Shown here piece by piece: positions 53,447 to 53,599 of a DNA stretch of 64,000 nt (the first letter of the stretch is position 1; every line of letters begins with the position of its first letter). The position numbers and the translations under genes are program-made. The DNA is taken from the UHGV virus genome UHGV-1963645; one strand, written 5' to 3'. The notes under the pieces were generated by a model. That model did not search any database. It had not been told where the DNA came from and was given only the letters and a program-made list of their open reading frames with translations. Origin of the DNA: a virus.

Positions 53447-53599
53447 ATTTTATCACCGTATCTTGGGGCTGGGTGTTGATGACGATGTGCTACTTGAAGT
53501 ACTTGGGTTTTTTAACGCAGCATCTGAAATGTGTAGACTGACCGGTAACAAATGACAACTCGTAGAATCGGGTAACACACCAGATTCTACGAGGTTTCA

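Follow-up and report, generated by a model that had tools for sequence, protein, structure and literature searches.

Why the ribosome-binding site (RBS) of a phage late gene should be matched, in reverse complement, by a segment lying just upstream of it was the question raised by this locus. The window (the whole 64,000-nt stretch of the UHGV virus genome UHGV-1963645 that was analyzed) is that of a P1/P7-like phage-plasmid (punavirus), and the earlier note on it had described an exact 11-bp inverted repeat with a 13-nt separation that includes the RBS of the first tail-operon gene. Both arms were re-read, and the left arm CTCGTAGAATC (53559-53569) and the right arm GATTCTACGAG (53583-53593) were confirmed as exact reverse complements over 11 bp, with a gap of 13 nt (53570-53582) between them. 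The GAGG that had been assigned to the right arm does overlap it, but its final G (53594) lies just outside; similarly, the ATG is located at 53600 as described, but 5 nt rather than 6 separate it from the GAGG. The local order is ...GGTAAC AAATGACAA CTCG TAGAAT C GGGTAACACACCA GATTCTACGAG GTTTCA ATG..., and the features of the locus are as follows.

51488-53446, plus strand: variable cargo module of three co-oriented ORFs (116, 158, and 344 aa), the likely source of read-through RNA
53547-53548, no strand assigned: junction between the cargo and the conserved late module, at which megablast homology to P1/P7 begins
53550-53558, plus strand: -22 box of the late promoter LPsit, AAATGACAA, with its position transferred from the P1 (AF234172) and P7 (AF503408) annotation
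53559-53569, plus strand: left (5') arm CTCGTAGAATC, expected only in RNA started upstream of LPsit
53563-53568, plus strand: LPsit -10 hexamer TAGAAT, from the P1/P7 annotation, inside the left arm
53570-53582, plus strand: loop GGGTAACACACCA, with a 3-bp inner helix in the RNA fold, holding the predicted LPsit start
53583-53593, plus strand: right (3') arm GATTCTACGAG, overlapping the Shine-Dalgarno GAGG at 53591-53594
53600-54166, plus strand: pmgC (tubA in P7), 188 aa, first gene of the LPsit late operon, matching phrog_1851

The assignment of this ORF to the start of a tail operon was borne out. Its product is 98-99% identical to P1 PmgC and P7 TubA, the order of the late operon is pmgC-tub-pmgB-sit, and the sit product is a 1140-aa transglycosylase and tape measure protein. 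Moreover, pmgC was essential in a P1 CRISPRi screen (PMC10695390). The ATG at 53600 could also be retained as the true start codon, as the N-terminus MTPRQLL... is kept in all relatives, including those in which the ATG abuts the preceding gene. In the case of Cronobacter phage JK004 (L005), the deposited pmgC homologue starts at an internal Met at locus position 1543, and the conserved N-terminus, Shine-Dalgarno sequence, and ATG are found at 1501; the annotated start is probably too short.

The repeat was then compared with the rest of the window. In Markov-1 simulations, about 0.2 perfect inverted repeats of at least 11 bp with loops of 3-20 nt were expected per 64 kb, and 10 were present, among which the pmgC repeat was the sole one with a loop longer than 7 nt. 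The other nine have arms of 11-13 bp and loops of 3-7 nt (81-107, 8172-8196, 15019-15047, 16578-16605, 25078-25104, 37803-37829, 41167-41195, 49321-49346, and 49700-49725). Several of them resemble terminators, e.g., 25078-25104 with its flanking A and T runs, or protein sites, and the repeat at 41167-41195, which adjoins LP23 near the P7-annotated parS, has the look of a protein site. A repeat search extended the pmgC repeat to 21-nt arms with 86% complementarity (53553-53573 and 53579-53599). The 11-bp stem is AU-rich, with G:C at 5 of its 11 pairs. The palindrome was also searched for elsewhere in the genome, as the earlier note had suggested, and no second copy of the 11-mer was found in the window with up to one mismatch, nor any further copy in P1 1-47000 and P7 52000-101660 with up to two. 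The Rfam 15 covariance models gave no match to either strand of 53300-53800 up to E = 1.

The left arm coincides in part with LPsit, which is annotated at the upstream flank of pmgC in both the P1 and P7 records. The Lpa-dependent late promoters of P1, namely, LPs, LPdar, LPlyz, LP23, LP26, LPpac, and LPsit, follow the layout (A/G)AC-AAGTNACTT-4 nt-TANNNT, in which the consensus AAGTNACTT was derived from six P1 late promoters. The 9-bp inverted repeat of these promoters is described as the Lpa binding site (PMC10695390). In the window, AAC followed by AAATGACAA occupies 53547-53558 and matches 5 of the 8 specified positions of the consensus, a weak match, though one found at the orthologous place to the annotated box, and the box differs by 1 nt from the -22 region annotated for P1 LPsit, AAATGACTA. 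The 4-nt spacer CTCG and the TAGAAT that follows it (53559-53568) fit the layout of 4 nt plus TANNNT. Accordingly, the left arm with the 9 bp preceding it has the annotated LPsit layout and resembles the other P1 late promoters in this respect; among these promoters, only LPsit has its -10 in a long and perfect inverted repeat whose other arm takes in the Shine-Dalgarno sequence downstream. LP26 (20279-20297, upstream of gene 26) reads AAATGACTA gcga TAGAAT, so that its -22 box is that of P1 LPsit and its -10 hexamer is that of LPsit, and the inverted repeat is absent there. Thus, promoter function alone needs no palindrome.

Since a box centered at -22 puts the hexamer at about -13 to -8, we infer that LPsit starts at about 53574-53577, within the loop, a start 7-8 nt past the hexamer being expected of an Lpa-dependent late promoter; literature searches for mapped starts of P1 late promoters found none. 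If the LPsit annotation is right, the 5' arm lies upstream of the operon's own start. As the -10 hexamer is inside the left arm, the LPsit transcript would then be made without this arm, and the hairpin could not form in the operon's own mRNA. The P1 record also predicts the sigma-70 promoters P1-P3pmgC upstream of pmgC. Of promoter-like elements, only the box-4 nt-TA(G/A)AAT overlapping the left arm is conserved, and it is common to LP26 and distant relatives. In addition, the heptamer AATGACA occurs twice at the locus, in the -22 box (53551-53557) and across the pmgC start codon (53599-53605). From each copy onward, 12 of 21 positions align, which may be chance or a trace of promoter origin.

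The idea that all P1 late promoters carry a complement of the Shine-Dalgarno sequence ahead of their start was evaluated by comparing duplex energies with those of 3000 random 26-mers. The p values were 0.0003 for LPsit, 0.019 for LPpac, 0.10 for LP23, and 0.36 for LPdar; the combined p without LPsit was 0.27, and the idea was not supported. The individual matches, each of them weak, were CTCTTCC (41279-41285) with GGAAGAG (41319-41325) before the TTG at 41330 for LP23 (leader 41279-41332), CTTTCGT/ACGAAAG for LPpac (3866-3926, minus strand), and CCTCCT/AGGAGG for LPdar in P1 (L003, 31183-31230).

The left arm would be carried only by transcripts entering from upstream, across the junction with the cargo. 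The window shares 98-99.5% identity with P1, P7, and many relatives from 53547-53548 onward, and the alignment of the window with P1 and P7 is identical from ACAAATGAC onward. Upstream of 53548, the window, P1 (simABC), P7 (upf50.5/upf50.0), and Cronobacter phage JK004 are mutually unrelated, and the same junction point is joined by at least four different upstream contexts among 80 IMG/VR contigs. The slot (51488-53548), which adjoins the immI region, contains sim in P1 and other genes in P7, the window, and the Salmonella, Klebsiella, and Cronobacter relatives. The hairpin lies approximately 12 bp from this recombination junction. In the window, the 116-aa ORF of the cargo is membrane-like, the 158-aa ORF belongs to phrog_3429 and is related to a YfjT-like slot gene in JK004 and in Salmonella and Klebsiella relatives, and the 344-aa protein, which carries an SH3_3 domain toward its C-terminus, belongs to phrog_7086. 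Both phrog_3429 and phrog_7086 are families of unknown function, and PADLOC gave no hits on the cargo module.

The cargo genes are co-oriented with pmgC in every lineage examined, and they are probably expressed in lysogens. Only approximately 10-30 nt separate the end of the cargo from the -22 box in P7, JK004, and the Salmonella and Klebsiella alleles, too little to hold a terminator. In the window, the sole terminator-like site found before the hairpin by a terminator scan was a weak one at 53429-53444.

The folding energy, which the earlier note had named as a check, supported a stable structure. The RNA of 53540-53620 had a predicted fold of -25 kcal/mol (z = -4.7), and 0 of 200 shuffled sequences were equally stable. 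The right arm covers the GAG of GAGG, with the extended stem running to 53599. The predicted cost of opening the RBS (-13 to +3) was 17.3 kcal/mol in read-through RNA of the window, compared with 7.4 kcal/mol in RNA started at 53574-53577. The corresponding values were 17.4 and 8.7 kcal/mol for P1 and 19.5 and 6.8-8.1 kcal/mol for JK004, so that opening was predicted to be costlier with the left arm in all three. When initiation is limited by structure, a gap of about 10 kcal/mol is expected to cut it by orders of magnitude. Consequently, the earlier proposal that the repeat sequesters the RBS in RNA is upheld in part: the stem is predicted to bury the Shine-Dalgarno sequence, and selection maintains its pairing in plus-strand RNA, but the late mRNA from LPsit would lack the left arm, and the sequestration would concern upstream-derived transcripts only. 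Since pairing needs the left arm and the sole conserved promoter starts 3' of this arm, the RNAs that fold must come from the upstream cargo.

Selection on the two arms was examined among 87 P1-type sequences. None of the 22 arm positions varied, compared with 9 of the other 30 positions of 53548-53599 (Fisher p = 0.007); of these nine, the loop accounts for five (of its 13 positions), the -22 box for two, and the stretch from the stem to the ATG for two. The part of the right arm at 53583-53590 was invariant as well, and because these positions lie outside the Shine-Dalgarno sequence, their constancy is not explained by promoter or RBS function. Among 16 haplotypes compared over a 13-pair helix, 95% of the cells were paired and the core pairs were never broken, and sliding the partner strand as a control reduced the pairing to 28-47%. 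Both-sided changes were found at two pairs and wobble changes at two more, a covariation that amounts to a handful of events. The substitutions seen were G:C to A:U at the pair of -10 position 3, U:A to U.G, and G:C to G.U. The U.G and G.U combinations preserve pairing in plus-strand RNA only, as the DNA palindrome is broken by them. Together, these comparisons show that both arms are under purifying selection and that the pairing is maintained in plus-strand RNA. The alleles of the relatives are as follows.

JK004 and Salmonella: CTCGTAAAATCGG [CTGAAGAT] CCGATTTTACGAG; G:C to A:U at -10 position 3, a longer stem, and an unrelated loop
Second Salmonella type: 14-bp stem with a 6-nt loop, i.e., a longer stem and a shorter loop
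Klebsiella aerogenes: ...CCGATTTTGCGAG; U:A to U.G
L105 and L106 (PmgC 68% identical): CUUAGAA / UUCUGAG; 2 bp fewer in both arms and one U.G
L107 (PmgC 65% identical): TAAAAT with UUUUU; shortened helix with one outer pair broken, and G:C to A:U again

In L105, L106, and L107 (PmgC 65-68% identical), the 2 bp were lost in register from both arms. The loop length is 13, 8, or 6 nt depending on the lineage, and the loop sequences of the JK004, Salmonella, and Klebsiella alleles are unrelated. Between the 11-mer arms lie 13 nt in P1-type alleles but 12 nt in JK-type ones, whose helix runs on into this 'spacer'. In the D6-like, Serratia, Pantoea, Erwinia, Acinetobacter, Enterobacter, and Vibrio relatives, pmgC follows directly after bplB with no promoter or hairpin between them; as both are absent, these relatives gave no covariation data.

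A mini-ORF was also observed at 53552-53575 (ATG ACA ACT CGT AGA ATC GGG TAA, MTTRRIG*), extending from the -22 box to a stop in the loop. No Shine-Dalgarno sequence precedes it, and its translation on read-through RNA, should this occur, would melt the left arm. A 7-8-codon ORF stopping in the loop occurs in P1, JK004, and the Salmonella alleles and is missing from L105 and L107. A leader-peptide device based on MTTRRIG* was considered as well; against it stand the missing Shine-Dalgarno sequence and the absence of the ORF in L105 and L107.

With moderate confidence, we read the inverted repeat as a translational insulator, a hairpin of the plus-strand RNA placed where the exchangeable cargo meets the late operon. 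The 5' arm would be the -10 region of the Lpa-dependent LPsit, and the 3' arm would hold the Shine-Dalgarno sequence of pmgC. RNA started at LPsit would begin in the loop without the 5' arm, and its RBS would be accessible. RNA entering from the co-oriented cargo genes, in whatever amount it is made, would carry both arms and fold, and the RBS would be hidden and pmgC left untranslated to an extent that the opening energies suggest to be large. As the downstream genes of the operon carry their own RBSs, a block on pmgC would protect the operon only if it has a polar effect. Termination by Rho within the untranslated pmgC could also protect the downstream genes, and the C/G ratio of approximately 1.6 in the first 80 nt of pmgC is a weak hint of it. 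More tentatively, the hairpin may make this locus a safe docking site for cargo, with the -10 region doubling as an anti-Shine-Dalgarno arm. Promoter-bearing, terminator-less cassettes could then be swapped in without lysogenic expression of the tail genes, and the untranslated pmgC RNA would be shortened by Rho.

Other explanations of the repeat were weighed against the translational insulator. The hairpin could be the 3' end of the cargo transcripts, either as a terminator or as an exonuclease-protective stem-loop, with the RBS overlap being incidental or secondary. It is the first stable structure past the cargo stop codon in JK004, the Salmonella and Klebsiella alleles, and P7, its stem is strong, and in the P1 allele it is followed by GUUUCA. 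However, it was not flagged by the terminator scan, the 13-nt loop of the P1 type is long compared with the 3-8 nt expected of a terminator (the JK-type loops have 6-8 nt), and the tails of the stem (GTTTCAAT / GTTTCA, GTATCC, GTTGGC, and GTTGCC) are neither U-rich nor conserved. Moreover, the hairpin belongs to the conserved late module and not to the exchangeable cargo, and neither role would account for its overlapping the -10 hexamer and the Shine-Dalgarno sequence so exactly. We therefore consider this origin unlikely, with the qualification that a role at the cargo 3' end, especially a protective one, could coexist with RBS masking. Placing the hairpin in every pmgC mRNA, as a constitutive 5'-UTR attenuator or stabilizer served by a real promoter further upstream, is quite unlikely. 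Such a role would accord with the clear selection of the pairing in plus-strand RNA, with the P1-P3pmgC predictions upstream in the P1 record, and with the weak -22 box of LPsit, but the sequence 5' of 53548 differs in the window, P1, P7, and JK004 and thus holds no conserved promoter, and the sole conserved promoter-like element overlaps the left arm.

The earlier note had also considered a DNA site for a dimeric regulator, which, as an operator over the LPsit -10 and +1, would repress or modulate the promoter. A perfect 11-bp palindrome centered on the promoter start region with both arms conserved would suit such a protein, and the G:C to A:T swap keeps the DNA symmetry too. The evidence nevertheless argued against it, and we regard it as very unlikely: no second copy occurs in the window or in the stretches of P1 and P7 that were searched, neither the annotated C1 operators of P1 nor its Lpa box resemble the site, and the arm spacing changes from 13 nt (P1 type) to 12 nt (JK type), with 2 bp lost from both L105 arms. 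Furthermore, the T/G combinations of the Klebsiella allele and of L105 and L107 keep the RNA pairing but break the DNA symmetry, and the JK-type helix continues into what would be the spacer of the operator. That the repeat has no function, being a relic of recombination or a chance complement between the -10 and the Shine-Dalgarno sequence, was given the least credence and is extremely unlikely. The proximity of the repeat to the recombination junction (approximately 12 bp) would agree with a relic, and no other P1 late promoter matches, the set without LPsit not being enriched (p = 0.27). Against this stand the invariant arms beside a variable loop and flanks (p = 0.007), the compensatory and wobble changes with the matched deletion in relatives, and the duplex with this Shine-Dalgarno region, which was exceptional among random 26-mers (p = 0.0003).

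A mirrored late promoter on the minus strand was also rejected. The right arm reads CTCGTAGAATC on that strand, but the -10 becomes CAAAAT in Klebsiella and CAGAAA in L105, and no convincing -22 box was found to its right. An RNase III site is unlikely, as a stem of 11-14 bp is too short for this enzyme.

The border between bplB and pmgC forms a series among the relatives (L105-L107, L112, L114, L115, L006, L011-L013, and L016-L018), from the abutting genes of the D6-like phages through intermediates with a terminator to the P1 and JK lineages, which have cargo and a strong hairpin. The intermediate lineages contain bplB, a strong intrinsic terminator, and an LPsit-like promoter (boxes AAGCAACAA, GAGTGACAA, and GCGTTACAA). 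In L105-L107, L112, L114, and L115, a strong intrinsic terminator lies upstream and the hairpin is weak or missing, although this link between hairpin strength and the upstream terminator comes from few related clades. Both this link and the lack of promoter and hairpin in the D6-like phages agree with the insulator reading, but they are confounded by phylogeny. As the gene upstream in L105-L107 is bplB-like and thus also late, insulation from lysogenic transcription cannot be the sole role of the hairpin in these lineages.

The proposed translational insulator was also compared with known systems. Protection of a gene from outside transcription by folding of the incoming RNA is known from the insertion sequences IS10 and IS50 as 'fold-back inhibition'. 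The transposase gene of IS10 (Tn10) is reportedly protected in this manner (Davis, Simons and Kleckner 1985, Cell 43:379), and the same is said of the transposase gene of IS50 (Tn5) (Schulz and Reznikoff 1991). As in these elements, the translation start signals are covered by the 3' arm, and the resident promoter would start transcription only past the 5' arm; resident transcripts would be translatable without the 5' arm, and impinging ones would fold and stay untranslated, which is here predicted from sequence. Unlike in IS10 and IS50, a phage late morphogenesis operon takes the place of the transposase gene as the unit to be protected, the -10 hexamer of a promoter dependent on the activator Lpa serves as the 5' arm, and the 'outside' is a cargo slot in the same genome; there is no sequence homology. 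The 1985 study is listed as a reference in PMC2965389, and the sequestration of translation signals in IS10 and IS50 is mentioned in bioRxiv 10.1101/2025.01.24.634351. By this analogy, the mechanism would be one known from insertion sequences, and the phage late operon with its cargo slot would be a new context for it.

RNA thermometers have 5'-UTR stems that sequester the RBS within the functional mRNA itself, and a signal opens them. The 5'-UTR hairpin of IS200 tnpA, which sequesters the RBS, is likewise part of the functional mRNA and opened by a signal (PMC4513863). The pmgC hairpin is similar in that a local stem is predicted to bury the Shine-Dalgarno sequence and limit 30S binding, but unlike in these systems, the functional pmgC mRNA is predicted never to contain the stem. 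Intrinsic terminators at prophage cargo ('morons') also place a stable stem-loop 3' of co-oriented cargo at the border of a late operon; unlike them, the hairpin has no U-tract, a long loop, and an AU-rich stem, and it lies on the conserved side of the junction.

The genome of P1, a paradigm phage, is very densely annotated, yet this conserved, covarying RNA structure is missing from the annotation of the P1 and P7 records; an earlier mention in the 2004 P1 genome paper (Lobocka 2004) is possible. The promoter and insulator together would form a compact part of approximately 50 bp that is reusable in engineering and synthetic constructs. If the insulator reading is true, the blindness of insertion sequences to outside transcription would extend to the borders of phage operons, and the sigma-70 promoters predicted for pmgC in P1 would yield translationally silent RNA. 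It would also explain how a hot spot of cargo exchange can lie so close to an essential late promoter, at a distance of a few bases, and not cause leaky expression of the tail genes. If the docking-site reading is true as well, it would provide a general design rule for temperate-phage cargo placed beside late operons, one that can be searched for in other phages.
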